Below are positions 8,797 through 27,167 of a DNA stretch of 64,000 nucleotides, piece after piece. The notes beneath the pieces are model-generated. The model made no database searches, was not told the origin of the DNA, and saw nothing but the letters and a program-made list of their open reading frames with translations. Origin of the DNA: Planctomycetota bacterium (GTDB lineage Bacteria; Planctomycetota; PLA2; JAEUHO01); assembly GCA_965222115.1 (NCBI GenBank), contig CBDCTJ010000001.1:591638-655637 (forward strand), given 5' to 3'. The translations under genes were made by a program, and so were the position numbers. Position 1 is the first letter of the stretch, and the number at the start of each line of letters is the position of its first letter.

Positions 8797-8804
8797 AAAT
8801 TCTC

Positions 8805-8882: not shown

Positions 8883-8900
8883 CTGACTCGGTATCTCCGC

Positions 8901-9128: not shown

Positions 9129-9139
9129 AGCCGTGCTCC

Positions 9140-9349
9140 TCACTCAGCCGAGACGGCGTATTTGACGTCACCCACGATGATCATCGCCCCAGTCGCCTCA
9201 CCGACAACGCGCCTCAGCGACACGTACGAAGTCGGTCTTCTTAGCGGGAATCGTATCGCATCGGGAAGACCCTTGATGCCGCACGCCCGCGGTTGCGCAT
9301 CCGCCTCTGCTAGGACCTCCTCGAGATAGCGATACAAGTGCGAGCGCTG
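9140..9349 (-). pseudogene. 3' fragment of an unidentified gene truncated at AGATATCAAG (9350-9359)
   Basis: Open frame with no credible start, ending just upstream of the RBS of 8901-9128. Confidence 0.4.
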
Positions 9350-9430
9350 AGATATCAAGAGAATCGATCGCCTAGGTCGATGCCAATTGTCTCGATGATG
9401 CGTTTATGCATGCTGGTAGTTCCTCCTGGG

Positions 9431-9518
9431 CCGTAGAACCCGTTGTTTATTTGCAGCACGATTTACCGTGACAGCGTGACAGGGGAACTACCGGCCTTTT
9501 CACCCCATCTCGGTATCT
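9431..9518. repeat. ~88-bp conserved non-coding arm ending in the junction motif (second copy 25381-25466; partial copies 8417-8450 and 26166-26191)
   Basis: Shared blocks CCGTAGA, GCAGCACG, CCGTGAC, CTACCGGCCTTTTC, CATCTCGGTATC. Confidence 0.85.
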
Positions 9519-9848
9519 TCATCTTGACTTCGAAATTTCGGCAGCCAACTTGTAGGCGAGGCTGTAGTACATTTCATAATATGGAGAGTCGTTTGGCACA
9601 TATTCAATCGCTTCGAGACTAACGATCAATCCAGTAGAAGCTCGAAAATCCCTTATGGCCTTGGTAACCGCCTCCAAAACGCGCGCTGGTTCGACGCTAG
9701 ACGAGTTATCCTCACGCACCCTAGCTAGCGGAATCAACCTCGGTGGCGAGTCGTTTTCACCCAACGCGGGCACTAGGCCGAGGAGAACATGTCGCAACCC
9801 GCTGTCAAACATTGCGCGAAATGAGTTACCGCTACGATAAATCTTCAT
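9519..9848 (-). CDS. Putative orphan immunity protein
   Basis: GGAGG RBS; start overlaps an upstream stop (TAATG) of a gene reduced to about 5 codons; stop abuts the junction motif. Confidence 0.6.
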   Translation of the reverse strand: MKIYRSGNSFRAMFDSGLRHVLLGLVPALGENDSPPRLIPLARVREDNSSSVEPARVLEAVTKAIRDFRASTGLIVSLEAIEYVPNDSPYYEMYYSLAYKLAAEISKSR

Positions 9849-9887
9849 TACTTGCCCTCCAGCGGATACCAAGCCGCGTATCCTTCA

Positions 9888-10758
9888 CGATACCAAGCCG
9901 CGTATTTTCCCACCAACTTCGTGACCTATGCCCCGCACCACATGATGCGGATCTAACAGCTTCAATGTCCGCGCAAATTGATCCTGCCGCTACGCGAAAG
10001 TCTTCTCTATGGCTATTGTCAAGAGTTCAGATGCGTGCAATGCGTAGTTCGAATGTTGCTCGATGAGTTTGTGATGGAGTGCGCGAAGACGCCCGACTGT
10101 GCTTGTGCTCGCATCAGTCCATCTTGATGCAGCTGCGATTACGAAGCGAGATCGACCGAGCATCCCATCGCGTCGATTTGGTCTGTTGAACCAGCGCGTG
10201 TATGCATTTCCAATGCGCATCATCGCATAGGACAGCGTTCCCTCGTCCGTACGCGCCATCAAGTGATAGTGAGAGCCAAGTAAACAGAACGCCTCTGGCC
10301 GAATCTCGTCACGACGCCGCGCACACGCGAGGAATGCTTGGAACTGACGACGATCTCGCGGTCCCGCGAACATCAAACGCTTGCTAATCCCTCGCATATA
10401 GATGTGATGACGAACACCCGGACCGTCGAATCGATTGCGCTTGCCCATATACGTAACTACGCGCAGCGCGCGAAATGGTCACACGTACGGGCGGTGTCAG
10501 GCTCTTGCGGTCAGCGCGGTGAGTCGAAAGTCACGAAGTTGGTGGGAAAAAACGCGGCTTCTATGAAAAGGCCTTGCATGTCAAGTGCGAAGCCGCGTCG
10601 GCGAGCGCATTTTCCGCGTTGTATATGTGCACATCGGCCCCTTGAGTACGCAACTTACCCTTATCGCCCTTGCCTTTTTGGCAGCGGATCGGAGCGAATC
10701 AAATTGCCAGCCATCGTCACTGGCGCCAGAAAACACGTCCCATTCAGGCTTGGTATCT
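9888..10758 (-). mobile_element. RAYT (HUH/Y1 transposase) element copy A with inverted GATACCAAGCC ends
   Basis: Ends 9888-9899 and 10747-10758; inner ~29-bp IR GCCGCGTwTTTTCCCACCAACTTCGTGAC at ~9897-9925 and ~10530-10558. Confidence 0.75.
9990..10448 (-). pseudogene. REP-associated tyrosine transposase, internally deleted
   Basis: RFDGPGVRHHIYMRG, HYHL (HUH), C-terminal HTH; the catalytic YxxxNP region is missing. Confidence 0.8.
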
Positions 10759-10761
10759 GTT

Positions 10762-11076
10762 TCATCCTGTGCGTAGGTGCCTCACTTGCCGCAGGCGACT
10801 AAGAGTATCGCGCAGAGCCGCTGCCCTTTGCGTCTCGTTCACATACAGGAGAAACTTTGCGTTCTGATGACTTGGCTCCGTCCACTCGTCCTCGAAGGAG
10901 TCGTAGTTTGGCTGGAGCACAAAGTGCTCTCCCCCAGATGTTCCTGCTCGATAATAGTCGCCGACCCATGAACTTTCATGGAGACTCATCGCGAGTCCGA
11001 GCCCCTGCTCGACAATCACCCTAGCGTCCTCAAGAGTGGATGCAGTGATACCATAGAGTGAGTAGTTGGTGTTCAT
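10762..11076 (-). CDS. Putative immunity protein
   Basis: ATGA overlap with an upstream toxin tail; acidic, 104 aa; stop 3 nt from the junction motif. Confidence 0.7.
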   Translation of the reverse strand: MNTNYSLYGITASTLEDARVIVEQGLGLAMSLHESSWVGDYYRAGTSGGEHFVLQPNYDSFEDEWTEPSHQNAKFLLYVNETQRAAALRDTLSRLRQVRHLRTG

Positions 11077-11347
11077 CGGACTCCAATGCTAGGTGATCGT
11101 GCCGCAGCCTGGGCCGCAACTCGGTAAACCATGAAATTTACGGGTCGGCCAGCCATCTTCTCGAGTGATCGCTGTAGACTACTCAGGCCAAGCGACTGAA
11201 TTTCGACGGGGAGTAGCGGCCCAGTCCGCGTTCCCTTGGACCGTAGGCCAACCCCAAGCCTCGCGGCAGTGTCAAACAGCGACTCGCTCGCGAGGGCGAT
11301 GTCGAAGTCGCTGACTCGGCCCACATCGAAGGGCTCGTGCGGAGGCC
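11073..11347 (-). pseudogene. C-terminal remnant of a polymorphic toxin (nucleotidyltransferase-like PFDVGRVSDFDIAL type)
   Basis: Frame reads ..EPFDVGRVSDFDIALAS..RTGPL..GRPVNFMVY; 5' end cut at AGATACCAAGCC (11348). Confidence 0.6.
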
Positions 11348-12492
11348 AGATACCAAGCCGCGTTTTTTCCCACCAACTTCGTGACCTATGTCCCGCACCA
11401 CATGATGCGGATCTAACAGCCTCAATGTCCGCGCAAATTGATCCTGCCGCTACGCGAAAGTCTTCTCTATGGCTATTGTCAAGAGTTCGGATGCACGCAG
11501 TGCGAAGTTCGAATGTTGCTCGATGAGCTTGTGATGGAGTGCGCGAAGACGCCCGACGGTGCTTGTGCTCGCATCAGTCCATCTTGATGCCGCTGCGATT
11601 GAAAGCCCGGCATAGCTGCACAACATTCCGATTCGAAGTACTTGCCATGCATCGCGTCGATTTCGCCTGTTGAACCAGCGCGTGTATGCATTTCCAATGC
11701 GCATCATCGCATAGGACAACGTTCCCTCGTCCGTACGCGCCATCAAGTGATAGTGAGAGCCAAGTAAACAGAACGCCTCTGGCCGAATCTCGTCACGACG
11801 CCGCGCACACGCGAGGAATGCTCGGAACTGACGACGATCTCGCGGTCCCGCGGACATCAAACGCTTGCTAATCCCACGCATATAGATGTGATGACGAACA
11901 CCCGGACCGTCGAATCGATTGCGCGTGCCCATATACGTGACTACGCGCAGCGCCCGATATGGTCACACGTACGAGGCGGTGTCAGACTCTTGCGGCTGGC
12001 GCGGTGAGTCGAAAATCACGAAGTTGGTGGGAAAAAACGGCTCTACTGCTCTTTGTGTGGGTCGTGATTTGGTGATTTCTTGTCCTGCCGCCCCTAAGAG
12101 GGCGCGGACGGCAGGAAAAGAAATGATGTTGGTGAGATTGGGCTGTCACAAACTTGTGGGGCCGTGCGAACCCAGCTACTGAGCCGTTCAAAGGCGCAAT
12201 TTTTCATGTTGTTGGCGTGTAGTGGCCGCCTCGGATCCAATACGATGCTTCCGTGACCCACATGAAGAGCAGGAGACTCGAAAAAACGCGGCTTCTATGA
12301 AAAGGCCTAGCATGTCAAGTGCGAAGCCGCGCCGGCGAGCGCATTTTCCGCGTTGTATATGTGCACATCGGCCCCTTGAGTACGCAACTTACCCTTATCG
12401 CCCTTGCCTTTTTGGCAGCGGATCGGAGCGAATCAGATTGCCAGCCATCGTCACTGGCGCCAGAGAACACGTCCCATTCAGGCTTGGTATCT
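11348..12492 (-). mobile_element. RAYT element copy B with a ~240-bp internal insert
   Basis: Near-identical to copy A; ends 11348-11359 and 12481-12492; arm 12281-12492 matches 10549-10758. Confidence 0.75.
11450..11932 (-). pseudogene. REP-associated tyrosine transposase, internally deleted (different breakpoints from copy A)
   Basis: Same N-terminus and HUH motif; jumps from NRRD to AWQVLRIG; no catalytic Tyr motif. Confidence 0.8.
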
Positions 12493-12500
12493 CGGTATCT

Positions 12501-12698
12501 CCGGTAGTACGTGTTGGGCGTCACGCCCAGCTGCTTGCAAATCAACCCTACTTTCGTGCCTTTTAGCTCAATCTTTGCCTGTCTCAGCATCCCAATAATC
12601 TGCTCCGTCGAGTACCGCTTCCTTGCCATCTGTTTGCTCCTGATCGAAAAGGTGTATCCGAACAAGTGGCACGCTCTGAGGGGGGGGGGGGCAGGTCA
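12501..12698 (-). mobile_element. IS3-family left-end remnant (IR plus the first ~43 codons of orfA)
   Basis: TGACCTGCCCCC.. end at 12698; AGGAG RBS; MARKRYSTEQIIGMLRQA..LGVTPNTYYR from ATG 12629. Confidence 0.8.
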
Positions 12699-12723
12699 CG
12701 CGTTAAGAGATGAATCGATATCT

Positions 12724-13149
12724 TTACTCCTGCCACGAGGAGACATCACACAACTCCAAATTGAAATTCTCTAAAATTCTTAACAGCCGCTGAGACACTA
12801 TCAGCTCATGCGAAGAATCGACGCCAGCGTCATCATGCCCGGACTCTCCAGTGATAAACAACCTTCTAAATTTCGGAACTACCAAATCAGGATCGAACTC
12901 AGATTGATCTCTATGGACTGTTGTTTTCATGGATCCTATAGAATACCCAGTCAAGTTCGCGTCCTTAAGTGCGTCGCTCAATCGCGGTGTAACCGCATAA
13001 CAAGGAAAGCACTCCACCAAATCGTCGCCAGACCAGTTAGAGATTTCCAGATGAAATGCACTCACGTCTGGAGGATGAATCGATGTGTCAAGTTGCGACA
13101 TCACTCCCAATTCACCTGGCACGTCTGGCGTAAGACGGAAGAAATTCAT
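12724..13149 (-). CDS. Cognate immunity protein of the giant toxin
   Basis: Immediately downstream of the toxin; DTSIHPP..W.GDDLVECFPCY pattern seen behind HH-type nuclease toxins; stop abuts the motif at 12706-12723. Confidence 0.75.
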   Translation of the reverse strand: MNFFRLTPDVPGELGVMSQLDTSIHPPDVSAFHLEISNWSGDDLVECFPCYAVTPRLSDALKDANLTGYSIGSMKTTVHRDQSEFDPDLVVPKFRRLFITGESGHDDAGVDSSHELIVSQRLLRILENFNLELCDVSSWQE

Positions 13150-13153
13150 AGGA

Positions 13154-16100
13154 CTACCTCACCGGTGGCACGAACAAATGTCCGTATCGATTGTCAATTG
13201 TAGTAGCAAAGTCCAATAGATCCTGCTTTGAAGGACGAGGATTCGCCTTGTACCAGCGATTCCATTCCTTTCGAATCGCACTCAAGTGTAGCTTGGAATT
13301 GAGCTTCTTCGGGATGCCCCGAAGATTCTCAAGAGAGTGCAGTTCATTGCCTGATAGCTTGAGGTGCGGGTAACGCCTTTGCACGCTCTGCTCTACCGCA
13401 TGATGAACCACGACCTTGCCGCGAAGCTCAGGATTCGCCTCAAAGAATGTCTTGCGATAGTCAACACGCGTCGCATTGCCAAATTTTGCTCCCGCCTCAG
13501 AAGTGGTTGAACGCCTTACCTTCCTCTTTCGAGTAGCCTTCATCCTCTTTACCTTGACTTGCTTTTTCGAATCGGGTCCTCGATCTGGCTTGTCCGGCTT
13601 CTTCGGAGGCTTACTCGGCGGTGGTGCCGAACTACCCGGCTGCGGGACGCCCTCTGGCTGCTTGGCTTCGGGGGCCTTACGTCGTCTTGTCTTATTGTTA
13701 TTCGGAGTGCCTATTGGACGAGGCTTTGAGCGCCTTCTTCTAGCCGTCGGCACCGGCGTAGACTTAGGACTGCCAGGAGGTCGCTTTATGACCTTCGTCT
13801 TCTTTGCGACCGGTGCACTAGATGCTATGGCCTTTGCAATATCAGATTGTTTCAACTTTCCCAGCTTGCTGGCAACGGCTTTGCCAAGTTTCCCGACAGG
13901 GATGAGATCACCAAACGCCGAGATAATCAAAGAGTTCGGCACCGGCTCATGCTTGAGCATTTTCGCGCCGATCTTTGCAATATCGCTACCGCTCACTTCA
14001 CCGACAACCTCAAGTACCTCAGCTACGTCCGCGGACTTCTGCTTGGCGAACGTCTGAACGCTCTTTGGTAGGAGCGACCGAGCCGCTTTTGCGACATCAC
14101 GTATCGCCTTGGGGCCATACGTGCCTGGAGGACGCGACACACAATCCAGTTTGGCATTCGCCGGAATGCGAATCACCTGTTCGTGCTTACCAGCCTTGTA
14201 CTGTAGGTGTTTTTCGTAGTAATTCTTGGCATCGGTGCCGCGCATGGCAAACACAGCGCCGGCCAAAAGGAAGTAGACGACGTAATCTCCTCCCTCATCA
14301 GTCCCCCCACTCAAGTAGTACATCGTTATCTTCTGCCTATCGCGCACTTCTCCAACTGTTGTACCCTTCTCGCAAGCCTTCTTGGCAAACTCAACTTGCT
14401 CGTGAGGAAACGTCATCCCGGACTCTCCCGAGGGGGCCCTGGGAGGTTTGATGGGAGGCGGAGGTTTCTTGGTGGGAGGAGGAGGTGGTGGCGGCGAATC
14501 AACTCCACCGTACCCATGCCCCGCTCCGGGAGGAGATACGCGGTTGCGGTGCCCGCCCGCATCGCTTTTACCGTCGTTCTCATCGCTCGATTCAGGAGGA
14601 ACAACCGGAGGCTTAAGAGGAACAGCGATTGATGTCGTAGGGCCTTTTGCACCGCCGCCTGCTCCCGCCCCAGGCGCCTTCTCCTTGGCTTTAGGCGGCT
14701 CATCCGGATCACTCGTACACTCGCACTTTCCGGGAGGCGGGCAGGTTTCTATACACTTTTTCTTGGCCTCCTGGAGCTCCTTATCGCACTTCTTCTTGAA
14801 CTCTTCTTCGCGCTTCTTTTTGCGCTTTTCGAGATCGTCTTTCTCTTGTCCTTCATTTCCCTCAAGAGGCTTGTCATATCCATTTAGCTCATCGAGGCGG
14901 GCCTCTTCATCCGCGGTTTGCTCTGCACGTAGTTCAGATAGTTCCTGCTCAGCGGCCTTCTTCTCGTCCTTGCTAGCCTCGGGATCGTCCTTGACCTTCT
15001 GAAGCGCGTCCATCCTATTATCGCGACGGGTGCGCTCCTTCTTTCTCAACTCATAGCGCCTGTCTTTTCGATCGCGACGCTGCTTAGCACGCCTTTTGAG
15101 CTCGTCGAGTTCCCTCTGTCGTTCACGCTCAGATAGTTCGAGTTCCTTCTTCCTGCTCTTCTGCTTTGGGCTCAACTTGATCCCAAGATCTTCAGACGAT
15201 CCAAGAGACTCTTTCTCCAAGTTCTCACGGTCGAGTTGATACTCACGAAAATCGTCACGCACTGCTTCGCGCGAATCGATATCTCGCTCGCGTCTCATGC
15301 GCGCATCACCCGTTCGGCTTCGATTGTTACGAATACGTTCGCGCGCCGTGGATCGCGCACTACGTGCGACGTTAGAGGCCTCTCTCCTCCTCTTGCGCAG
15401 ATTTCTACTTCTTGTGGCACTATTAGGCGGGCGACGTGCTTCTTTCTCAAGGTGCCTAAGCTCGGCTTCCATAGCACGAGAAGCTGCTTCGTACTCTCGA
15501 CGTGCCTGTTGGGATAATTCGTTCTTGCCGGTAGTTGCCGACTTCATGGCTTCGAGACTGTCGCGAACATCATTCTTGGCAGATTCTAAATCCGATCTTG
15601 ACAGATCCATCTTGTTCCTGAGCATATTCAAATGCGAATTGACCTTCAGTCGTGTTTCTTCAAGATCCGAGAAGTCATTCCCTGTCTGTTCGTGATCTTC
15701 TCGTCGAGCACCTTCGACTGACGACTTCGCCTGACTCTCTCGAAACCGGTCTTCTTTTCGCTTGACTAGATCGCTCAGCTTGTCTCTTGCAAGCTCAAAA
15801 GCCGCTCTAGCTCTGTGATAGTTCCACATGACGAATGTCCGTTTCGCAACCGCCCGACCAAGTTCGACCCCCGGACTGCTCCCTCCTCCACCTCCGCCAC
15901 TTGGAGTAGAGGCAACCAGCCCCCCTGGAGCGCGAGATTTGTAGTTTCCCGCTACATATCGATCCTCTGCAAGAGGAGCTGGCATCTGAACATTGCTCGG
16001 AGGCAGAACTCCGCCCTTAGTTCCAGGCTGGAGCGCAACACGTCCACCCAAGTAGTCTCCAGGCATACGTGCAAGACTCTTACTTGCAGTAGTATTGTGT

Positions 16101-18151
16101 TGGCGGCGCGGCGAATTCCGAACGAGTCGCCCAATGCCAGAGGAAGCGGTGGTAGGTTTGCCTGGATGCGAAGAAGGGGCGAGTGCTTGAGCTCTCGCGA
16201 ATCGTGGCGTAGATGGTGCAAGCGGACGCGGTGCTCCATATCGCGCTACGCGAACTTCGGCCTTGGATGGTATTGGCGCACGCGTTGAACGCGAGATCGT
16301 GGGACCTCCGAACGAACTAGCAAGATCGTATGGTCCCTTCTGACGAATTGGCTTTGCTGATTTGTTGTATGCATTGAGTGCTCGAGCTTTCGCGAATCGT
16401 GGCGCAGATGGCACAATCGGACTCGGTGTCCCATATCGTGCTGCGCTAACTTCGGTCTTGGAAAGTTCTGACGCATGCGTTGAACGCGAGATTGTGAGAC
16501 CGCCGAAAGAACCAGTACTCTCGTATGGTTCTTCCTGACGCGCTGACTTTCCTGATTTATTGAATGTCGCGTTCGCTAGGTGCCGCGAGTTACCCAACTG
16601 GCGAGAAGACCGAGTGCCACTCGGGTTAGCTGAGTAGTACTCAAGACTTGATGAATCAAAGTCATAAATCTCGGAATGAAGCTTGAACAGCGGATGCAGC
16701 TCGATCGGCTCTTTCACTATTCCAGCCTGCTGCCCGGGGGGCTTCTCTATTCGCTGAAGACTCGGAGAAGGACCTGAGGGGCTCGAACTACTATTGCCTA
16801 AGCGACTCTCTTCTAATCGAGTGGACTTGTAATTTGACGGAGATTCGACAGGCGTTTTCTCTTGGCGCTCTAGGAGCGGGTTACGCCCACGACCGCCACC
16901 GCCTCCTCCTCCGCCGCCACCTCCGCCGGCGCCGCCGCCACCTCCACCTTGATCATCGTCATCATCGTCGCCCGACTCCGGTTCATCGGGTACATTCGGA
17001 TCAAGGCGCGCATCAAAATCATAAATTTCCCAATCGCGAGTAATCCACTCAAGAAACGGACCAACCATGGGCCACCCAAGGCCTAGGGGCGCAAAGGCAG
17101 GTCCAAGTAGAGGCAAAAATTCCAAGCCGCGGCGGTTATCAATCTCGATTGCTCCGCTACCAGCGTCCTCGGTTCGAGAGAGATAACGATGAGCTTCGGC
17201 TATCTGATCCCCCGAGAGACTTCGATTACCTTCTAGCAGTCGCTGCTCGAACCCTAGAGAACTAGTCACTTGCGCAGTAGAGTCCACACGAGTGAGCGTG
17301 TGTAAATCTTCGATTGCGCCAAGTCCACCGTCAATCTCAAGTGGCGCGGGAATGAGTGCTCGTGGCTGCTGCAGAAAATTTTCGGGAACTGAAATGGTGA
17401 CGCCAGCGTCAATTGGATTCGTCCCGGTCGAAGTAGCTATGAACTCGAACGGCTCCTCAGGAAGAGGTAAGGGTTTAGGGACGGGCATGACGGGAAATAC
17501 ATCTTGCGGAAACACACCCATCGGAAACATATCTAGGAGAGATACGGCCTCTTCGGGTTCGCGGATGCACTTGCACTCAATGTTGCACTGACGCTCGGCT
17601 TCTTCAGCGGGCTTCTTGTCCCCGTCTTCACCTCCACCACCCCCCTTCCCACGATCCTGAATCTCAAGACCGCGAGACTTGAACTCCCCAGAGGCAGCAG
17701 GAACTTCAGGATCCGCCTTCTTTCCAACGACGCGCCGCCGCGGGCGCTCATTAGCACCCGATGACCCATGATAATTACTCGAAGCAACATCTGACGGCGA
17801 TTCGACCTCAGCGCTACCCGAGCTACTCCCCATTGCTGCATCCGAGGTGTGCGCGCGAGGCGTTTGCTGCAACAACTCTTGCAACATGGTTGGGCTGGAT
17901 TGCCCAGGCAGCATGACGCCGCGCGTTTCCGAGGAGAACTGCCCCTCAATGACGTCGGTTCCACGCGGGCCCAAATCATCTGGGCTAGGAACGACGCGTG
18001 AATAGGCCGCACGAACCCCCGCCCTTCGTTTGGAAGGGCGGAGGGTTGCTACGGTACCGTCGGGAAGTTCACATTTTTCGCTACGTCCAGCGTATCGAGT
18101 GTCTTTACTACCGAGACAGGACTTACATCCACATGCACTACTAAGATCCAC
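13154..18151 (-). CDS. 1665-aa polymorphic toxin with C-terminal HNH/EndoVII-like nuclease
   Basis: C-terminus VVVHHAVEQ..HSLENLRGIP..HLSAIRKEWN; long disordered and coiled-coil body; GTG start. Confidence 0.75.
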   Translation of the reverse strand: MDLSSACGCKSCLGSKDTRYAGRSEKCELPDGTVATLRPSKRRAGVRAAYSRVVPSPDDLGPRGTDVIEGQFSSETRGVMLPGQSSPTMLQELLQQTPRAHTSDAAMGSSSGSAEVESPSDVASSNYHGSSGANERPRRRVVGKKADPEVPAASGEFKSRGLEIQDRGKGGGGGEDGDKKPAEEAERQCNIECKCIREPEEAVSLLDMFPMGVFPQDVFPVMPVPKPLPLPEEPFEFIATSTGTNPIDAGVTISVPENFLQQPRALIPAPLEIDGGLGAIEDLHTLTRVDSTAQVTSSLGFEQRLLEGNRSLSGDQIAEAHRYLSRTEDAGSGAIEIDNRRGLEFLPLLGPAFAPLGLGWPMVGPFLEWITRDWEIYDFDARLDPNVPDEPESGDDDDDDQGGGGGGAGGGGGGGGGGGGRGRNPLLERQEKTPVESPSNYKSTRLEESRLGNSSSSPSGPSPSLQRIEKPPGQQAGIVKEPIELHPLFKLHSEIYDFDSSSLEYYSANPSGTRSSRQLGNSRHLANATFNKSGKSARQEEPYESTGSFGGLTISRSTHASELSKTEVSAARYGTPSPIVPSAPRFAKARALNAYNKSAKPIRQKGPYDLASSFGGPTISRSTRAPIPSKAEVRVARYGAPRPLAPSTPRFARAQALAPSSHPGKPTTASSGIGRLVRNSPRRQHNTTASKSLARMPGDYLGGRVALQPGTKGGVLPPSNVQMPAPLAEDRYVAGNYKSRAPGGLVASTPSGGGGGGSSPGVELGRAVAKRTFVMWNYHRARAAFELARDKLSDLVKRKEDRFRESQAKSSVEGARREDHEQTGNDFSDLEETRLKVNSHLNMLRNKMDLSRSDLESAKNDVRDSLEAMKSATTGKNELSQQARREYEAASRAMEAELRHLEKEARRPPNSATRSRNLRKRRREASNVARSARSTARERIRNNRSRTGDARMRRERDIDSREAVRDDFREYQLDRENLEKESLGSSEDLGIKLSPKQKSRKKELELSERERQRELDELKRRAKQRRDRKDRRYELRKKERTRRDNRMDALQKVKDDPEASKDEKKAAEQELSELRAEQTADEEARLDELNGYDKPLEGNEGQEKDDLEKRKKKREEEFKKKCDKELQEAKKKCIETCPPPGKCECTSDPDEPPKAKEKAPGAGAGGGAKGPTTSIAVPLKPPVVPPESSDENDGKSDAGGHRNRVSPPGAGHGYGGVDSPPPPPPPTKKPPPPIKPPRAPSGESGMTFPHEQVEFAKKACEKGTTVGEVRDRQKITMYYLSGGTDEGGDYVVYFLLAGAVFAMRGTDAKNYYEKHLQYKAGKHEQVIRIPANAKLDCVSRPPGTYGPKAIRDVAKAARSLLPKSVQTFAKQKSADVAEVLEVVGEVSGSDIAKIGAKMLKHEPVPNSLIISAFGDLIPVGKLGKAVASKLGKLKQSDIAKAIASSAPVAKKTKVIKRPPGSPKSTPVPTARRRRSKPRPIGTPNNNKTRRRKAPEAKQPEGVPQPGSSAPPPSKPPKKPDKPDRGPDSKKQVKVKRMKATRKRKVRRSTTSEAGAKFGNATRVDYRKTFFEANPELRGKVVVHHAVEQSVQRRYPHLKLSGNELHSLENLRGIPKKLNSKLHLSAIRKEWNRWYKANPRPSKQDLLDFATTIDNRYGHLFVPPVR
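16191..16540 (-). repeat. 195-nt (65-aa) internal tandem duplication in the toxin gene
   Basis: 16191-16345 vs 16386-16540; SFGGxTISRST..RYGxPxPxxPSxPRFAxAxAL occurs twice. Confidence 0.85.
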
Positions 18152-18160
18152 GGCTAATCC

Positions 18161-18520
18161 TTACGGTTGGCGATTAATGAAAAAACCCTGCAACCAACAG
18201 GTCACTCCTGGACTCGTACCGTTCAGGATGACGGCCACACGAAACCATCTCTTGGATAGTTGAAAATCAATTGGCTCTTCTCTGTCTTCTAGCGGTTCAA
18301 CCTGCGAAGTCCCCGCGACCATTTGCCAGTCGCCGCGATCCGTAGACTCCAACACCTCAACCTTAAACGTTGTCCCTGTGCCAACCAGAGGACCGCGCCA
18401 TAGGTAGAGCTTTGCCTCTTCATAAGCGGAAACATCGATAGGTAATGTTTCGTACCGCAACGCGCCAGCAAACGCAGTAAACCGAGGAATAAGAACTGCA
18501 GGGGTAACAATCTTTGTCAT
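18161..18520 (-). CDS. Small beta-rich protein, paralog 2 (capsid-cement/decoration-like fold suspected)
   Basis: GGAGG RBS; shares LIPR, WRG, ESTD..W, KRWFR and CW..GF with 18587-18946. Confidence 0.8.
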   Translation of the reverse strand: MTKIVTPAVLIPRFTAFAGALRYETLPIDVSAYEEAKLYLWRGPLVGTGTTFKVEVLESTDRGDWQMVAGTSQVEPLEDREEPIDFQLSKRWFRVAVILNGTSPGVTCWLQGFFINRQP

Positions 18521-18586
18521 TGCGAGGCCTCCAATGGGCGCGCCCCGGTACGCGGGGCGCGCAATGATTGAGTGCGTACGCCGCGA

Positions 18587-18946
18587 CTACGTCTGCCGCA
18601 ACTCGAGGAAGCCAATTGCCCAACATGAAGCACCTTGCGACGTGCCCGTGAGCGTGACTTTGGCGCGGAACCAACGCTTCTTGAGTTCTGGCGTGTACTG
18701 AGCTTCTGTTTCGGAACCGGGATCGGCAGATGTACTTCCCGTACAGGTTGTCCAACTGTCTTGGTCCGTTGACTCTTCAAACGCAATTGAGAAGCTTCCT
18801 GCATTGTCCAGCAACTTGCCTCGCCAAGTATTGACGATGGCCTTGGAATACTCTGTAACGTCCATTGCAATGGTCGTAAACGTCGAGTCGCCTGCATACG
18901 TCGTGTATCGCGGAATCAGAACGAGTGGAATGAGTTCTCCAGCCAT
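18587..18946 (-). CDS. Small beta-rich protein, paralog 1
   Basis: AAGGA RBS; both paralogs are 119 aa and colinear. Confidence 0.8.
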   Translation of the reverse strand: MAGELIPLVLIPRYTTYAGDSTFTTIAMDVTEYSKAIVNTWRGKLLDNAGSFSIAFEESTDQDSWTTCTGSTSADPGSETEAQYTPELKKRWFRAKVTLTGTSQGASCWAIGFLELRQT

Positions 18947-19054
18947 AGTGATTATCCTTTCGCCGTCGGTGTCAAATGAACACAGCCACCATCACCCGAC
19001 GGTCGGCACGAGAATCGACGCTACCGACGCTTCAAAAAACGCCGACTCCACTAG

Positions 19055-19591
19055 TTAATGACGCGCCATGCCCCTAAAAATTGAATTGGACGAATTCGAG
19101 CGCCTCAACGCGCGAGCAGCTCTGTCAATGCACCTACGAAATGCACTTGGATGTATTCCAAGTAGCCGAGCAGCACCGTCAATGGATTCGGACGCCATGT
19201 AAGCATCGAGCGCTTCCCGTTGACGACCCGTAAGTTGCTCACCACGGGAACGTACAACATCACGCAGACTTACCATGCCCCTTGATTGCCGCATCGGCAT
19301 CGACTCACTTGCCGCGATGGAGTCGTGTGCATTTCGACTTAGTACCCGCACCTGCTCCCTCGCAACATTCCGCGCCACCATTCGCAACCATCCGTCCGAC
19401 TCAAGCTTCTCCGAATCGTCCTCCGCACTCACATAGCGCTCCCACACTCGAACACACGTCTCCTGCAGCACATCTTGTTGATCGTGAGGCTGAAGGCGAT
19501 AACGCCTCGCCTCTTGATCACAGAGCTGCGCAAGTCTCGGGAGCCTCTGCTCGAACTCCCTAGCTCTCACCCGAAGACTTCCATTCTTCAT
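19055..19591 (-). CDS. ECF-type sigma-70 factor
   Basis: Region 2 DQQDVLQET..GWLRMVARN; region 4 LTGRQREAL..AARLLGI; start uncertain (19591 or 19693). Confidence 0.8.
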   Translation of the reverse strand: MKNGSLRVRAREFEQRLPRLAQLCDQEARRYRLQPHDQQDVLQETCVRVWERYVSAEDDSEKLESDGWLRMVARNVAREQVRVLSRNAHDSIAASESMPMRQSRGMVSLRDVVRSRGEQLTGRQREALDAYMASESIDGAARLLGIHPSAFRRCIDRAARALRRSNSSNSIFRGMARH

Positions 19592-19833
19592 TATCAACAC
19601 CAATCTGTAATCATGAGAAGCACCGATAGACACACCGCTCCCCCACGCGAGCTCAAATCGCGTTCTTTCATGAGCGGCGATAACTTCAACCAACGCGCAC
19701 TACAACGACGGCGCGCAAAGACGCGACCGACTGAGATCACCTACGAGGTGCGACCCTCAATAATCACAAAACCGGATCCCAGCCGGTCGCACAAGTTACT
19801 GTTGCAAGCACACGATCAGGTTTGATCGAAGCG

Positions 19834-20796
19834 CTACGCGTCACCCCCATGGGCCTCGTCACGTGGCGACGCATTCGACGCAGACTCCTGCGCGCGCCGG
19901 CGAAGCGCTGCTAACCGATTCGAAAATCGCAGGCGATCGTTCTTCACTTCACGTAGCCATGCACTCGCTTCCGCTCGATGAGGCTCGGGCAGCGAGAGAA
20001 CAACACGTCGAGCTTCGTCAGCAAGGCCACTCGCAGATAACAAGCCAACTCCTCGCTCACGCGCGTACTGGAACGCGTCGAAGTCCAGGTCGATTGTGGC
20101 TGGCAAGTTGTGGCGATTCTTGGCGTCCCATGCGTTGCTTCGCTCGGTGTGGAGCACACGCCGGCACGGCTCGTTCTCGCTTCCGGACTTCGCGTCGGAC
20201 AATCCACACGAAATGTAGTTCGCAAAGAGAAGCATGTCGCACCAGTCCTTGATCAAACCGTAGCACTTGGGATGGAGCCGTCCTTCGTAGCGCGCGTAGT
20301 CGTCGCCGAGTGGATTGGCGAAGTTCTTGGTTCCCACATGGGCAATCGAGATGATCTCAATGCCGTTGAGGGTGCGCAGTGCATCGAGCATTCGCAGCAA
20401 ACGGCGCCACTCGGAAAGGGCGGCAATGTACCCCTTACCGTAACCAGGGGTTTCAATCGACTCCCACCCATAGAGTTCGCACAGGTGATCCCAAATCAGA
20501 CACTCGACCCAGTCGAGCGAATCAAGAACCAGCGTCTTGTAGTCGGATTCGGCAACGGCGGCCACGGCATCCAACACGTCGCTAAAGGTCTTGGCTTCGG
20601 GGAAGCGAGGCACATCGAGGTAGCGCAGGCCATCCTCGGATGAAATAAACACAGGACTGGGGAACTTGCTAGCAAACGTCGATTTGCCCACACCCTCTAC
20701 ACCCTGCAATACGATGCGATCGGCACCAGGCCGTATGCCACGCGTGACACGCGTGAGCGTCATCCTTTTCCGCGGACTGACAACACTGTTCATCAT
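19834..20796 (-). CDS. Phage AAA_24 family ATP-binding protein (Sak4-like)
   Basis: GVEGVGKST, TLVLDSLDW, GYGKGY, IAH, DWCD, AKNR motifs. Confidence 0.9.
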   Translation of the reverse strand: MMNSVVSPRKRMTLTRVTRGIRPGADRIVLQGVEGVGKSTFASKFPSPVFISSEDGLRYLDVPRFPEAKTFSDVLDAVAAVAESDYKTLVLDSLDWVECLIWDHLCELYGWESIETPGYGKGYIAALSEWRRLLRMLDALRTLNGIEIISIAHVGTKNFANPLGDDYARYEGRLHPKCYGLIKDWCDMLLFANYISCGLSDAKSGSENEPCRRVLHTERSNAWDAKNRHNLPATIDLDFDAFQYARERGVGLLSASGLADEARRVVLSLPEPHRAEASAWLREVKNDRLRFSNRLAALRRRAQESASNASPRDEAHGGDA

Positions 20797-20875
20797 GTTT
20801 TGATCTCCATCTCGATTGGGTCATACGTCGTTAAAGTGAAAGCGCGCAATACCACTGCGCGCGAAAGACATGGGG

Positions 20876-21277
20876 TCATGGGTCGCACTCGTTTTCGATG
20901 TGATGCAGCACGGCTCCTTCAAACCACTTGCGGCGCCCGCTCTGACTGGCGGAATCGACCTTGACGAGTCGGCATCCGACTTGTAGCGACTCAAACCGCT
21001 TCCAATAGCGGTACCAATGCTGCCGAGTCATGCCGAGCTGCGCCGCGCACCAGGTGGCATCGCGCAACGGAAGCGTGCAATAGTCAGGTAGTTCAGTAGC
21101 GCGCGCGTTTGGCTCGACGTCATGCGTTGATCGCCCACTTCCAACAGCGACCTGATTCATCGCATCGGCATCGACGCCTGTTCGATCACATGGTGTTCGG
21201 TCACGTGGCGTTCGATCTCCCGGATCCGGAAGCCCGGCGGACAGCTCGTGTGGCAGATGGGGTTGTTCAGCGTACAT
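20876..21277 (-). CDS. Cro/AlpA/excisionase-like HTH protein
   Basis: C-terminal WCAAQLGMTRQHWYR...RKW; divergent from the repressor. Confidence 0.5.
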   Translation of the reverse strand: MYAEQPHLPHELSAGLPDPGDRTPRDRTPCDRTGVDADAMNQVAVGSGRSTHDVEPNARATELPDYCTLPLRDATWCAAQLGMTRQHWYRYWKRFESLQVGCRLVKVDSASQSGRRKWFEGAVLHHIENECDP

Positions 21278-21398
21278 ATCAACACACTAACGTATTTTTG
21301 CCTCACTGTCGAGCATATTTACCTTTTTTATGTATTTAGATACGGTAAATTAGTCCTAATCGGTTGACATCTCGCGCCCCTGCCCTTGGAGTCTCTTC
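21278..21398. promoter_or_regulatory. AT-rich divergent promoter/operator region
   Basis: ATTTACC (21317-21323) / GGTAAAT (21344-21350) inverted repeat between divergent HTH genes. Confidence 0.5.
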
Positions 21399-21782
21399 GT
21401 GAGTACAACGAAAGAATGGCCCTGGCACGCCAAGATTCAGGCCGAGCGCGGGCGCCGGGGCTGGACCTATGCCCACGTAGCGCGACGGGTAAAGGAGGAG
21501 TCGAGCCTCACTCGTCGCTGGCTGCGGGGAGAGACGCGACCTCGTGGTGACGTCATTCCGAAGTTTGCAAAGCTCATGGGCTGGCCCATTGCCTATTTGA
21601 TGGATGAGAACAAACCGTATCCGCCGGAGATGGACGACGACTGGCGAGAAGCGGTCCTGGATGGCCTTGATGAGCATCGTACGCGCCTCATGAATGCGAT
21701 GGCGGATGATCAGGCCGTGGCGTATCTGGTGAAGGCGCTTGATCAGTTTGAGGATCTTCGCGAGTCGTTGGGCGAGGATTAG
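21399..21782 (+). CDS. XRE-family repressor
   Basis: RGWTYAHVARRV..SLTRRWLRGETRP..IAYLM HTH; GGAG RBS, GTG start. Confidence 0.85.
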   Translation: MSTTKEWPWHAKIQAERGRRGWTYAHVARRVKEESSLTRRWLRGETRPRGDVIPKFAKLMGWPIAYLMDENKPYPPEMDDDWREAVLDGLDEHRTRLMNAMADDQAVAYLVKALDQFEDLRESLGED

Positions 21783-22296
21783 GTGTGTAGCAGCGACTTG
21801 CCTTGAAGGCTTCACGCGGCGCCGCGACAATGGCGACCCATTGACGAATTACATACTGTCGGATGGCAATCTGGCGCGCCCGATCTTCAGGCGTTGAGCC
21901 CGCGCTCAATGAGGCTCCGTGCGCTACGAGCCGATCCTTGGAGTCTATGAGGCTGGCGGAATCTTCGCGTGCATGTTTACCGTAATCAGGATCTCGCCGC
22001 CGGTCCGATTGCTTACCAACGCTGTTTTCCTTGGATTCGTTGGATTCATTAGAATCACTACCGCCGCTCTCTCGTCCGCGTTTGTTTGACACATGTGCTT
22101 CGTTTCCGGCCGCTTTCCCTCTCACCTAAGAGGGCCGAGAGGTTCCCAATGGCTCTCTGCGGAGGAACCATCTTAGGCATGGGGGCGACACTAACAAAAT
22201 ACTAATCAAGTGTTTGACCAATTTACTCAATATATTGTGGGCAATGGACTTATGTCTACTACTCAGAGTGCCTGATCTCTCCAGGAGAACCTCAGA

Positions 22297-23058
22297 CTAC
22301 TCGCCTCGTAGGCGCTCAACCTCCCGCTCCAGGTCGGCAACCCGAGCGGCGATCGAGGGGTGACCGTCCATGAGTTGATGTGCCCGGAACGCAGTCTCAA
22401 GCGTCGAGATCTTGGCGTACACCTTGTCCAGATCACGCTCCGCTTCGGGCCGACCGTAGTCCTCGTTTTCTACGTCCTTCAACCGTGCGGCTAAGGCCCC
22501 GAGCTCTCGTAGGGCATCGGATCGAGTGAAGCGATTCCCGCCAATGTCGGCGAGTGTTTCTTCCGCGTGATTCAAGCGAGTTCGCAACTCACGCATCGGA
22601 CCATTCGTAACGCGTTTCTCAACATTATCGATGGCTTGACTGAGCAGCTCTTTGGTTGCAGCAAGTTGCATCTTGTGATTTCGCTCCCACCCCGCGGTGC
22701 GGACTTCAAGCTGACGAAACGCTTCGTCTTCGCGACCGTCTTCCCGAGCACGCACGAGGTCGGCCGCATGGCTGACCTGAAGGGAAGACTCGTGACGTGC
22801 AAGCGTATCGATATAGCCTGTGGCTCCGAGCCGCACAATCGCCGTGGTAACGGACATGACAAGACCTGCCGCGCCAATGATCCAACCCCAGTTGATGGGA
22901 CGACGCGAATGCTCCGCGAGTTCTTTGAGCTCGCGAGCAAGCTTTTCAAAGTTGCGCTCCAAGTTTCCGAGTCCTGCTTGAACCTCGGCTTTGAACGACT
23001 CGAGATCGGTCTTGAGGCTGCCTATGCTGGTGTTCTTCGATGTTGTGCTAGTTGCCAT
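22297..23058 (-). CDS. Single-TM coiled-coil protein (phage lysis-cassette-like)
   Basis: N-terminal coiled coil, INWGWIIGAAG TM helix, long C-terminal coiled coil. Confidence 0.7.
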   Translation of the reverse strand: MATSTTSKNTSIGSLKTDLESFKAEVQAGLGNLERNFEKLARELKELAEHSRRPINWGWIIGAAGLVMSVTTAIVRLGATGYIDTLARHESSLQVSHAADLVRAREDGREDEAFRQLEVRTAGWERNHKMQLAATKELLSQAIDNVEKRVTNGPMRELRTRLNHAEETLADIGGNRFTRSDALRELGALAARLKDVENEDYGRPEAERDLDKVYAKISTLETAFRAHQLMDGHPSIAARVADLEREVERLRGE

Positions 23059-23386
23059 AGTGTTCATCCCCCACGGGTGCCTCTGCACGAGATGACGCTA
23101 CGTGTGCCTCGCGCACCGCTTGATCGATGGCCTCTTCTGCACGCCAGACACGAACGCTTGGCTTCGTGCGATGGTCGTAGAGCAGCTTGAGCCAAACGCC
23201 GAGGAGTGATCCCAACCCCGCCGACCACTTGATCCATGGCAACTCAGGCCAGAAATGAGCGGCGACGAGCGCAAAGAAGCCGAGCGTGGCGATACACGCG
23301 GGCGGAAATCCACTACGCATCCATAGTGACGATGGCTTGGGTCTACATGCATGGCTTACAGGCTCGTGGTTCATTTTCGTTTCCAT
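23048..23386 (-). CDS. Two-TM small membrane protein (holin-like)
   Basis: Two hydrophobic helices and a charged tail; overlaps both neighbours. Confidence 0.55.
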   Translation of the reverse strand: METKMNHEPVSHACRPKPSSLWMRSGFPPACIATLGFFALVAAHFWPELPWIKWSAGLGSLLGVWLKLLYDHRTKPSVRVWRAEEAIDQAVREAHVASSRAEAPVGDEHYGN

Positions 23387-23838
23387 AATCCGTATCCAAG
23401 TACCTGGCCGTTCTCTGACGTCATGCGCAGCGTCCGCTTATCGCCAGCGCTTCCGGAAACCGGCCACCATGAATGGGTCGTGGTCCCATCGCGCTGAAGA
23501 GTTACGTCGTTCTCCGGTCTTCCGATTGACTCGCGAAACGCATCTACCGTTTCTGCGCGCGCGGCGGCCCGCACGCGATCGTAGGGAATCGCGTCATTTG
23601 GAAGTGGTCCGCTCTCTTGATCGGGAGGTGGAACTACTTCCGGTATCGGTATCAAGTCGGGCTCAAAGATCACGTCGGGATTGGGTGTCGGGGGAGAGAC
23701 ATCGGGCGCGGGTTCGATGTGGGGTTCAACCGGTGGATCGACGACCACAATCTCGGGTTGCGTAGTGCACGCAAACGTCGCGAATGCGAACACCAGCACT
23801 ACGCTTCGCTTGATCAGACTTGCTGACTCGTATGTCAT
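23371..23838 (-). CDS. Pro-rich lipoprotein
   Basis: GGAGG RBS; lipobox TFAC; Pro-rich linker. Confidence 0.7.
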   Translation of the reverse strand: MTYESASLIKRSVVLVFAFATFACTTQPEIVVVDPPVEPHIEPAPDVSPPTPNPDVIFEPDLIPIPEVVPPPDQESGPLPNDAIPYDRVRAAARAETVDAFRESIGRPENDVTLQRDGTTTHSWWPVSGSAGDKRTLRMTSENGQVLGYGLWKRK

Positions 23839-23839
23839 C

Positions 23840-24676
23840 TCAAACCTCCACCGACAGGGGCTTCAACGGCGCCCACGATTCCCAAACGAATTCGTTCTCC
23901 CAAACATCGAACGGAATCCATGCGAAACACGGCGGCAGATCGTCGCCCATCACGGGGTGCGAGATCCCCCACCCATTCCAAGAGTTCATTTCTAGAAACG
24001 CGCCGCGTCGTCGTGCACTTGTCGCTACGTATTCGCGGTCGTACCCCACGATCTGCGTGCAATGACCGCCAAGCATGGCACCCCGAGCACCTTCATGCAC
24101 ACCCGTACGTCCCACACGCTCGGTATTGGCATAGACACCGCGCCCAATCACCACCGGACGTGCGGGAAGTCCATCGAGTCCGGCGAGTGCGGCGGCAACT
24201 TGCGTTGCACGTCGAAGATAGGACCAACCCACACGATGAAGCGGGCGCTCCAACGTTGCAGCCTCCGGCGGCAAATCGGTTGTGACGCGACTGGGGTCGT
24301 AGGGCCATGCGGCTTCGCTACACGTTCCGTACTCGCCGATCCAGCGCGCGACATGATGCAGATAGGCACCGCGATCGCGCTTGTGAGCGTTCCCACCCTC
24401 CAATAAACGACCGCCGTAGTAGACATCCATTCGCGACACATCAACCGATGCACCGGTTTGCTGCTTGGTAAAGGTCTCAAGTGCGCCGCCGAATCCATGC
24501 GCGGTACACGAACCAGCATGTTCTTGAAACTGTGCGCGCCACAGTGGCAGTAATACGCGCATAGGCAGCGAACTCATGCGAGTCGAGCGCGCTAGCCTGC
24601 GCGTGCGAGGAAGAGACGTCTTCGGTGTGGGCCCTTTGACGCCGCCAATCGGAAGCATCGATACGTCGATAGCCAT
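23840..24676 (-). CDS. Papain-like cysteine peptidase (C1 family)
   Basis: QEHAGSC, GGHCTQIVGYD, NSWNGWG catalytic motifs. Confidence 0.9.
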   Translation of the reverse strand: MAIDVSMLPIGGVKGPTPKTSLPRTRRLARSTRMSSLPMRVLLPLWRAQFQEHAGSCTAHGFGGALETFTKQQTGASVDVSRMDVYYGGRLLEGGNAHKRDRGAYLHHVARWIGEYGTCSEAAWPYDPSRVTTDLPPEAATLERPLHRVGWSYLRRATQVAAALAGLDGLPARPVVIGRGVYANTERVGRTGVHEGARGAMLGGHCTQIVGYDREYVATSARRRGAFLEMNSWNGWGISHPVMGDDLPPCFAWIPFDVWENEFVWESWAPLKPLSVEV

Positions 24677-24686
24677 GCGATCACGC

Positions 24687-25187
24687 CTACTTCATGAACG
24701 CATGCGGATCGTCCGCAGACGTCGTGCATGTCGGACACAAGTTTCCCGCAGCAGTTCGCTCCGCAGAAGGCGCTGGTGATTCGACCGCAGGCGCAATGGC
24801 TTGGACGAGGCCCAATGAAATAGTCTCATCGGACATGGAGTAGCTCATTGGCAGAGGCGCGCATGGATCCGTTGGGGCACGCGCGGGGGGTGCCGCAGGC
24901 AACGAATAGGGAGCAGCCGGATAGGACACAACACGCTGCACAGCTCGCGTCTGAGCGAACGATGCGCGTTCAACCATGGGACGTGCATCCGTACACGTAC
25001 CGCCAATGCAGAACTTGCATCCAAACACAGGATCTCGAACACACAGACCATTGATCGTCTCGCCGACAACGGTCTGAACGTCAAGTGCTGTAGCGCGCTG
25101 GGTTGCGGGCGGCGCACTCTGCATCGTCGTACAGGCCGTGGCCATAGACAATGCGAAACCAACCAGTATCAATCGAACAAAGAACAT
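24687..25187 (-). CDS. Cys-rich lipoprotein
   Basis: GGAGG RBS 25194-25198; lipobox ATAC; CxxC pairs. Confidence 0.65.
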   Translation of the reverse strand: MFFVRLILVGFALSMATACTTMQSAPPATQRATALDVQTVVGETINGLCVRDPVFGCKFCIGGTCTDARPMVERASFAQTRAVQRVVSYPAAPYSLPAAPPARAPTDPCAPLPMSYSMSDETISLGLVQAIAPAVESPAPSAERTAAGNLCPTCTTSADDPHAFMK

Positions 25188-25380
25188 AATCATCCTCCGC
25201 AATCGGAGGGTCGCACGGTTCTTATACGCGCTTGGTCAGAGAGAGGTTCCCCTCTTTTACTGTTCTCTCATAGCGACCGCGTAAGGGGAAGTATCTCGAA
25301 AGCTCATTAGATGATTCATCTGCACTCGAACGCAAGGGTCGATCTCGCTAAAGCGCTGCAATGTGCTGCACGAAAGGGGA

Positions 25381-25500
25381 CCGTAGAGCCCGCCTTTTTC
25401 GCAGCACGGTTTTCCGTGACTGATCTATAGAGGAGCTACCGGCCTTTTCGTTCCATCTCGGTATCCAGTACCCGGCATCCATCTCGATATCCTCGTATCC
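25381..25500. repeat. Conserved arm plus four stacked junction-motif variants
   Basis: CATCTCGGTATCC, CCCGGCATCC, ATCTCGATATCC, TCGTATCC in tandem at 25454-25500. Confidence 0.8.
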
Positions 25501-27148: not shown

Positions 27149-27167
27149 GAAAGATACTGAGTCATCT

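Follow-up and report, generated by a model that had tools for sequence, protein, structure and literature searches.

Polymorphic toxin systems consist of a variable C-terminal toxin with an adjacent immunity gene, are attended by orphan cassettes, and share their tips among Rhs, PAAR and type VII secretion system (T7SS) carriers (outlined in PMC3482391). We find the same traits at a locus in a 64,000-nucleotide stretch of a Planctomycetota bacterium genome (GTDB lineage Planctomycetota, PLA2, JAEUHO01; GenBank assembly GCA_965222115.1, contig CBDCTJ010000001.1, positions 591,638 to 655,637), hereafter called the window. The locus encodes a carrier-toxin, its predicted immunity protein and two small jelly-roll paralogs. 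It belongs to a planctomycete polymorphic toxin family with an unrecognized anatomy of putative delivery, made of jelly-roll proteins and cysteine (Cys)-cluster carriers, and it sits here inside a reduced phage-like element. Jelly-roll arrays and Cys-cluster carriers are absent from the eight export modes given in the abstract of the survey cited above (PMC3482391). The toxin locus family has apparently not been described so far: among the matches listed for Creative Commons PubMed Central and bioRxiv papers, none describes such a system in its title or abstract, where the supplement tables of toxin surveys could list these carriers. The core of the window locus and its nearest upstream gene comprise the following features:

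12724..13149, minus strand: predicted immunity protein, 141 amino acids (phrog_32682, E 3e-27)
13154..18151, minus strand: carrier-toxin, 1665 amino acids (composition profile; layout common to the family)
13157..13519, minus strand: swappable toxin tip, predicted HNH/EndoVII-type nuclease (relatives, invariant histidines, Atlas look-alikes)
14717..14788, minus strand: Cys cluster C3, residues 1122-1145, at the end of the helical region
14792..15814, minus strand: proline-poor, charged helical or coiled-coil-like region, about residues 780-1120 (from composition)
17567..17587, minus strand: Cys cluster C2, residues 189-195, ending in CxC
18116..18133, minus strand: Cys cluster C1, residues 7-12, the N-terminal family motif
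18161..18520, minus strand: jelly-roll paralog B, of the class that evolves faster (39% identity with paralog A)
18587..18946, minus strand: jelly-roll paralog A, conserved class and family marker (relatives, model, fold matches)
19055..19591, minus strand: sigma factor of the extracytoplasmic function (ECF) type (start inferred from sequence; open reading frame 19055-19693; Sigma70_r2, E 9e-7)

Several described systems resemble this locus in part. Nuclease bacteriocins follow a plan of disordered region, coiled coil and nuclease and are released via lysis or prophage genes (as summarized in PMC5536347 and PMC7374059). Together with colicins and S-pyocins, they share with our locus a disordered region and a coiled-coil-like stalk, both called here from composition, a C-terminal nuclease, which is predicted here, an immunity gene and possibly release by lysis or prophage genes (PMC5536347), and S-pyocin carriers bear the same tip as the window toxin. 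Unlike colicins and pyocins, however, the locus has no colicin or pyocin Pfam domain, and it has three Cys clusters, jelly-roll partners and, in the family, carriers split into two or three genes. Umbrella particles of Streptomyces likewise combine a large, stalked polymorphic toxin with small accessories from the same locus, an assembly that we can only suppose here; they are secreted and come from a different phylum, whereas in our family we detected no repeat ring and no signal, and the accessories are single jelly-rolls (compared with the outline in PMC11062931).

XepA and YomS, which belong to the lytic cassettes of prophages, include the best fold match of paralog A and share its phage association (outlined in PMC6834076), but they are only 11 to 12% identical to it, and here the paralog arrays are tied to a toxin gene rather than to a lytic cassette. 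The Ena appendages of endospores, which bear BclA ruffles, pair small paralogous jelly-rolls with a long stalked protein encoded with them, and disulfide chemistry is possibly shared (outlined in PMC11362473). In contrast to Ena, the Cys clusters here are on the carrier and not on a subunit connector, there is no DUF3992, and the tip is a toxin rather than an adhesin. MuF toxins of temperate phages are also polymorphic toxins tied to phage-like elements (outlined in PMC5576092), but our locus has no MuF domain, lies outside any DNA-packaging module and is not confined to prophages.

Conserved gene layout and exchangeable tips

One scan of species-representative genomes with paralog A patterns returned 34 loci, of which 33 are members; locus L034 had no tblastn match and was dropped. 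The members lie in 23 genomes, 21 labelled Planctomycetota and two Gemmatimonadota, and eight of these genomes hold two or more loci. Comparison of the loci establishes the gene layout, the exchange of tips, the linkage of tip and immunity gene, the jelly-roll fold and the lack of signal peptides. Two or more jelly-roll genes are present in 30 of the 33 loci, and the other three show one, near a contig end. A carrier with the motif C-x(1,5)-CxC lies behind the jelly-roll genes in all 30 loci with visible downstream DNA, a count for which carriers were picked by position and not by motif, to which the L026 gene and L019 were added after 28 of 29, and which leaves aside L008, L032 and L033, where the contig ends before any carrier. 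Among control genes, 3 of 81 had the motif, namely two further carrier genes and a Cys-rich open reading frame (ORF) behind a related jelly-roll array. The preliminary description of this DNA, made from the letters of the sequence, had already noted two paralogous beta-proteins, but it missed that the pair is the conserved hallmark of the whole toxin family.

The family carriers have almost no sequence conservation and a fixed plan: an N-terminal Cys motif and a second cluster with CxC at its end come first, then a long region rich in proline, glycine and serine and a charged helical one; a third Cys cluster and a linker lead on to an ordered region and the tip. The window carrier conforms to it, with C1, C2, the disordered region, the charged helical region, C3, a proline-rich linker, an ordered pre-toxin region and the tip in that order. 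Long forms elsewhere likewise run from a disordered to a helical part and end in a variable tip with a small gene behind it; the carrier of L017 is short and atypical. At several loci two or three ORFs together encode the carrier, and their stop and start codons overlap or abut, so that the separate pieces presumably reassemble. The window carrier had been called giant, which overstates its size, since 1665 amino acids is typical of complete, tip-bearing family ORFs (905 to 1916 amino acids). It has no match in Pfam, PHROG or NCBIfam, and its N-terminal 98 amino acids are 39% identical to L031. We rejected the idea that it is a chance ORF because its frame is conserved with L031 and its tip is conserved. 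Within its disordered part, positions 16181-16566 hold an internal tandem duplication of about 195 nucleotides (80% identical).

Across the 34 family ORFs scanned, matches were confined to tip domains, a single immunity family and a single coiled-coil match. None of the carriers scanned has a Pfam colicin or pyocin translocation domain, none of the known trafficking or repeat domains sought (Rhs, CdiA, PAAR, WXG/LXG, MuF) was found on them, and no carrier examined has a signal-like hydrophobic N-terminus. The ring of the umbrella toxin is built of degenerate ALF repeats. Repeat families had no match on our carriers either, where degenerate repeats could escape detection.

The window tip, which forms the last 121 amino acids of the carrier, has 446 relatives, and PAAR, T7SS, Rhs, S-pyocin, PT-TG and LysM carriers are among the best 120 of these (55 to 77% identity). 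Its residues H39, H40, H61 and H78 are invariant across 60 sequences. Look-alikes in the Atlas include DUF2380, Tox-SHH and AHH at 0.93, with just three of the ten best sharing a family; Pfam gave no match, and a sequence search gave no solved relative. The invariant histidines and the Atlas look-alikes suggest an HNH/EndoVII nuclease; very probably the tip is an HNH-type DNase that the product of 12724-13149 blocks. The immunity gene, which the preliminary description had listed with the toxin, stands directly behind the tip, and its homologs directly follow the same tip in a Photobacterium and two Bacillus records. Tip and immunity gene are adjacent in three of the five plasmid-collection records that bear the tip, and a 56% immunity homolog lies downstream of the toxin in L029. 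Neither protein has a match in the phage collection.

The 19 complete toxins make up 16 tip groups, with a tip in common in just three pairs, of which two (L003/L027 and L023/L030) have the next small gene in common as well. Conversely, carriers that are alike bear different tips (L027/L030 at 56 to 61%, L020/L024 at 55 to 57%). The tip of L001 is a non-specific endonuclease (E 1e-11), while those of L023 and L030 (CdiA_C) and L004 (Ntox46) match below curated cut-offs. Orphan cassettes are also present: an orphan tip accompanies a second copy of the immunity gene in L001, and the window has the following pair.

10762..11324, minus strand: orphan tip and immunity pair, downstream of the toxin (match to an adjacent Pseudomonas aeruginosa pair)

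The two genes match, at 60% and 33%, an adjacent pair in an orphan toxin/immunity array of a P. aeruginosa record. Four small ORFs at 8540-9872 of the window, between junction sites and without library matches, are probably further orphan immunity genes. We have little doubt that the locus family is a polymorphic toxin system without a known trafficking domain.

The two window paralogs, of 119 amino acids each, have 46 residues in common. Paralog A has 195 relatives; the best 120 are at 55 to 77% identity, and the two of these that carry a taxon name are both Planctomycetota. With E up to 0.001, a profile of the other paralogs matched 904 clusters at 50% identity; at E 1e-10 it matched 367. 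The model of paralog A (predicted local distance difference test, pLDDT, 92.7) is all-beta, a single jelly-roll. Its best fold match is XepA (Z 11.9, root-mean-square deviation (rmsd) 2.8, 107 residues aligned), followed by YomS (Z 10.8, rmsd 2.3, 99 aligned), and it also matches Ena2A (Z 10.0, rmsd 3.1, 103 aligned) and Ena1 (7a02, Z 9.6). A second jelly-roll family is present in ten larger arrays; its best folds are the PM2 spike P1 (Z 10.0) and Ena1 (7a02, Z 9.6, rmsd 3.9, 97 aligned). The nearest solved folds of both families include ring- or fibre-forming jelly-rolls (pentamers, heptamers and fibres), as XepA/YomS and the Ena relatives are described to be (outlined in PMC6834076 and PMC11362473). 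Sequence search against solved structures gave nothing significant for either family, and Pfam gave no match on either window paralog, DUF3992 included.

Profile comparison found no link between the second array family and the paralogs (probability 0.15%) and a weak one between a third jelly-roll class and the paralogs (32%, E 5e-4). Paralog B groups with its counterparts in L031 and L001 (Shimodaira-Hasegawa-like approximate likelihood ratio test, SH-aLRT, 91 to 92) in a quick tree that leaves 41 of 76 branches unresolved and was used for classes only. This grouping alongside related carriers can be plain linkage. A predicted complex of three copies of paralog A with two of paralog B scored an ipSAE of 0.00 in each of two runs (mark 0.32, without folded controls) and speaks neither way on binding. 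L015 holds a second array on the minus strand (1-4482), in which a Cys-rich ORF and a gene for a 550-amino-acid protein come after four jelly-roll genes of distant relationship; it is possibly a sister system, and in L005, L006 and L015 single genes of its class stand ahead of the main arrays. Outside the window, protein P0331 fuses a family jelly-roll to a repeat-rich region that looks beta-propeller-like by eye, which hints that some family members carry a binding domain.

The ECF-like gene lies 108 nucleotides upstream of paralog A. Sigma-70 regions 2 and 4 are present in its ORF, and its best NCBIfam matches are under their cut-offs; it is a probable local activator of the toxin unit. Across the family, the regulator at the head of the locus changes in type, and 11 of 27 loci have a sigma-, LuxR- or AraC-like one (two of the sigma calls by eye). 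None of the head regulators at the 27 loci is detectably homologous to the window ECF, and inspection of 28 leaders by eye showed no common DNA motif upstream. The neighbourhood proposed in the preliminary description thus recurs in other genomes as paralogs and carrier with varying tips, but without a homolog of the ECF gene. Scans for promoters and terminators gave no more than chance would (4 against 6.2, and 14 against 12.3). The genes of the described module are present as claimed, but the conserved unit is smaller than that module: the functional unit is 12724-18946, probably with the ECF sigma factor as a local switch.

The surroundings of the loci vary. A tRNA gene is present at 7 of 33 loci, tyrosine integrases at four and insertion sequence (IS) elements at several, while others, such as L001, L005 and L010, have plain housekeeping-gene surroundings. 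No capsid or portal match occurred among 137 flanking proteins, a subset of all genes picked from our own gene calls. Packaging genes were found at one of the 33 loci, L007, where a satellite-like element at 1-6106, upstream of the toxin locus, encodes a primase, an excisionase-like helix-turn-helix (HTH) protein, an XRE protein, small and large terminase subunits and a resolvase. L031, which has the carrier most closely related to that of the window, is flanked by a tRNA-linked integrase on one side and phage-like late genes on the other, and its site may be a prophage end; paralog A is there in two frames (1609-1967, a broken gene or an assembly error), with paralog B and the toxin intact. 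L029 lies between tRNA-Gly duplications, where tandem islands at 690-20246 with a 65-nucleotide repeat in four copies are organized like the junction array of the window. The module is therefore found within tRNA islands, next to a satellite or amid housekeeping genes, and is not prophage-confined. This removes the explanation, raised at the outset, that homologs occur only within complete prophages; the segment behaves as mobile cargo, as had been proposed.

Putative delivery and competing accounts

We somewhat favor an account in which a polymorphic toxin forms a particle of jelly-rolls and carrier that is released by lysis. The jelly-rolls would assemble with the carrier as a ring or short stack. 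The Cys clusters would join the pieces via disulfides or metal, which would explain the persistence of split carriers. The helical stalk would reach over the target envelope in the fashion of colicins. Taken together, these three steps stand slightly below an even chance. Lysis of the cell, supplied by the host or a resident phage, would free the toxin, a step that we consider evenly balanced; a large bacteriocin-like toxin with an immunity gene, as the preliminary description had it, is supported, and its lack of a signal peptide makes lysis a plausible route of release. The product would be a colicin-like particle. In its most specific form, a self-assembling, phage-derived jelly-roll hetero-oligomer, as a ring or short fibre, would capture a Cys-knotted stalk, built from one to three chains and ending in an exchangeable toxin, and would work as a diffusible particle without a secretion system; this version is possible but doubtful.

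The delivery part defines polymorphic toxin families, and new delivery parts usually expose new machines. The jelly-roll/carrier family lacks a library entry, comprises 904 or more jelly-roll clusters, follows a strict gene layout and occurs in a phylum whose weapons are little studied. Its kit is small, with two 119-amino-acid proteins, one carrier and one immunity gene, and it may show that phage decoration-type domains were recruited for bacterial warfare. In the most specific form given above, the diffusible jelly-roll particle would be a planctomycete counterpart of umbrella particles, made from virion decoration parts.

Several points weigh against this account. A dedicated exporter may be encoded elsewhere in the genome. 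The helical region of the carrier is called from composition, and the loci were found via paralog A patterns with at most 10 kb per side, on contigs many of which are short. The jelly-roll fold scores are middling and unspecific, for paralog A also matches a GOLD domain (Z 10.1) and carbohydrate-binding modules (up to 8.9), and cupins score 8 to 9 against the second array family; the modelled fold, rather than a function, is what these matches establish. Lysis candidates are the window cassette and the phage-like genes at L031, with none recognized at other loci. Most loci thus have no lysis genes in view, and lysis would usually be needed in trans. Furthermore, the peptidase of the window cassette has relatives at 85% and 59%, so that one or more other lineages maintain this cassette.

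The jelly-rolls could instead serve a secreted, contact-dependent system, either as small carriers or chaperones that hand the toxin to a planctomycete exporter or as a toxin-tipped surface fibre resembling Ena with ruffles. WXG100/Lap and PAAR proteins are small carriers or chaperones for toxins. Paralog A is strongly conserved and the carriers are not, as would be expected if paralog A docks on a host machine that is itself conserved; larger arrays keep distinct paralog classes side by side; Ena folds score high for both array families (Z 9.6 to 10.0); and the many loci lacking lysis genes in view fit secretion as well. However, all-against-all clustering found no exporter gene common to the flanks, there are no signal peptides, and the N-terminal arms of both window paralogs have no Cys, unlike disulfide-linked Ena subunits. 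We regard secretion as rather unlikely. It is not fully exclusive of the next two explanations, which concern the phage-like genes upstream of the core and a helper virion. The upstream genes are:

19834..20796, minus strand: Sak4-like phage recombination ATPase, vehicle remnant (AAA_24, E 5e-42; phrog_124, E 2e-39)
20876..21277, minus strand: small HTH-like ORF, divergent from the repressor, vehicle remnant (by inspection; no Pfam, PHROG or NCBIfam match)
21399..21782, plus strand: XRE-type repressor, vehicle remnant (HTH_31, E 4e-5; PHROG repressors, E 2e-5)
22297..23067, minus strand: putative coiled-coil protein with one hydrophobic stretch, lysis-cassette-like by label
23048..23386, minus strand: small membrane protein, holin-like by position (one hydrophobic stretch; no library match)
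23371..23838, minus strand: proline-rich protein with a signal-like N-terminus and a Cys (hydrophobic stretch; lipobox pattern unmatched)
23840..24676, minus strand: papain-like C1A peptidase, intact, candidate endolysin (catalytic residues)
24687..25193, minus strand: predicted lipoprotein (lipobox pattern and hydrophobic N-terminus)

The preliminary description had read these genes, together with the ECF sigma factor and the toxin, as a domesticated prophage circuit, that is, a repressor switch, Sak4, sigma factor and lysis cassette kept in this lineage as an inducible unit that makes and releases the toxin. Much of its inventory is correct. Every ORF that it named is present and open, the ATPase and the sigma factor are confirmed, and the window ORFs scanned (54 with Pfam, 22 and 30 with PHROGs) contain no integrase, terminase, portal, capsid or tail match. 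The repressor is supported, and its 'Cro/Xis-like' partner is a call by inspection. Of the proposed lipoprotein/peptidase/holin-like operon, the peptidase stands, one of the two 'lipoproteins' has a lipobox pattern, and the 'holin-like' genes, with one hydrophobic stretch each, are without a library match. The peptidase is catalytically intact, with Q51, C57, H205 and N231 invariant in six of six aligned sequences; its library match is weak, and it is 27% identical (E 1e-6) to the N-terminal part of an annotated endolysin of phage MMB025. The coiled-coil membrane protein has no match in the phage collection, and the Sak4-like ATPase matches 119 phage records.

Such a circuit would be consistent with the intact ORFs, the close relatives of the peptidase, the placement of HTH, Sak4, ECF, paralogs and toxin on one strand, the related junction sites that bound the segment and the known release of colicins driven by prophages (outlined in PMC7374059). 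However, tblastn at E 1e-4 found the repressor, HTH, Sak4, ECF, peptidase, lipoprotein and membrane genes at 0 of 34 loci, with at least 6.3 kb of upstream DNA, space for phage genes, visible in 19 of the 33 members. Upstream regulators change between loci, Sak4 lacks companion replication or recombination genes, and the order lysis, repressor, Sak4, with no integrase between, would resemble the product of a deletion. The circuit is unlikely and, as a conserved trait of the toxin family, not supported. We consider it likely that a phage-like element brought the locus in and that the XRE, HTH, Sak4 and lysis-like genes are what is left of it after reduction. In this lineage these genes may still trigger the toxin and release it, yet they were found at none of the 34 loci and would stand outside the family. 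The divergent repressor pair (XRE with its partner HTH called by inspection) and the early recombination gene Sak4 are what remains in the window, where the ORFs scanned include neither the integrase nor the packaging or replication genes of a complete prophage or satellite. A tailocin or gene-transfer agent was rejected, as the ORFs scanned show no tail or head genes.

It is very unlikely that the jelly-rolls act as capsid cement or tail decoration that fixes the toxin to helper phage particles. Language-model and viral-structure look-alikes of paralog A are mostly uncharacterized phage proteins: its Atlas look-alikes are 78 to 100% viral clusters, one with Bbp16 on 13% of its members, its fold matches Bbp16 (Z 8.7), and its best BFVD match is an uncharacterized phage protein (TM 0.78). 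A weak match to a PHROG major tail protein occurs in 44 of 121 paralog-family members, and both the terminase subunits and primase beside L007 and the integrase and phage-like late genes around L031 fit such a role. Nevertheless, paralog A has no sequence match among 50,697 phage records and packaging genes occur at just one of the 33 loci, L007, and the 55 to 77% identity of its top 120 relatives would be hard to reconcile with many different helper capsids. Finally, that everything, the toxin included, is decaying prophage cargo is scarcely credible and for the core already largely refuted: broken IS3 and RAYT pieces lie downstream and L031 is at a possible prophage end, but the core recurs intact in 23 genomes, of which eight have at least two loci, and phage genes are often nowhere in view.

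Junction sites and neighboring DNA

The segment lies in an island with its own motif family (5026-27170; core GATAC[CT][GA]AG), often right behind a stop codon. The form AGATACYRAG has nine copies where 0.14 are expected. Two related sites bound the segment, which fits its status as cargo, though no empty site came into view:

12705..12723, minus strand: junction site of the short palindromic type, directly behind the immunity stop codon (16 of 19 positions identical to 8489-8507)
25395..25466, minus strand: junction site of the long-arm type, 5' side of the segment (79% over 71 nucleotides to 9447-9517)

The junction motif placed at the 3' end by the preliminary description is thus real as a family, but both bounding sites are degenerate copies, outside the nine exact ones. 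Long-arm sites lie at 26191, 25466, 9518 and 8450, and short palindromic sites at 27152, 12723, 8896 and 8507. There is no exact copy past 27161 and no recombinase in the window. The motif family may be a cassette-capture system; it was found at 1 of the 34 loci and is thus no family trait. We rejected an integron attC reading, as attC sites are longer than the junction sites of about 20 nucleotides.

Downstream of the toxin, 9889-12500 holds two near-identical, truncated RAYT-like transposase elements with flanking 31-nucleotide inverted repeats that end in the junction core motif, one of which interrupts an IS3 orfA fragment (12315-12665). RAYT-like ORFs, called by eye, follow the toxin also in L016 and L020. 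Farther along the window, the region 53382-59960, of lower GC content, contains a GmrSD restriction gene and long ORFs (56589-58097 and 58530-59960) without significant library matches, and it is possibly a separate defence island.

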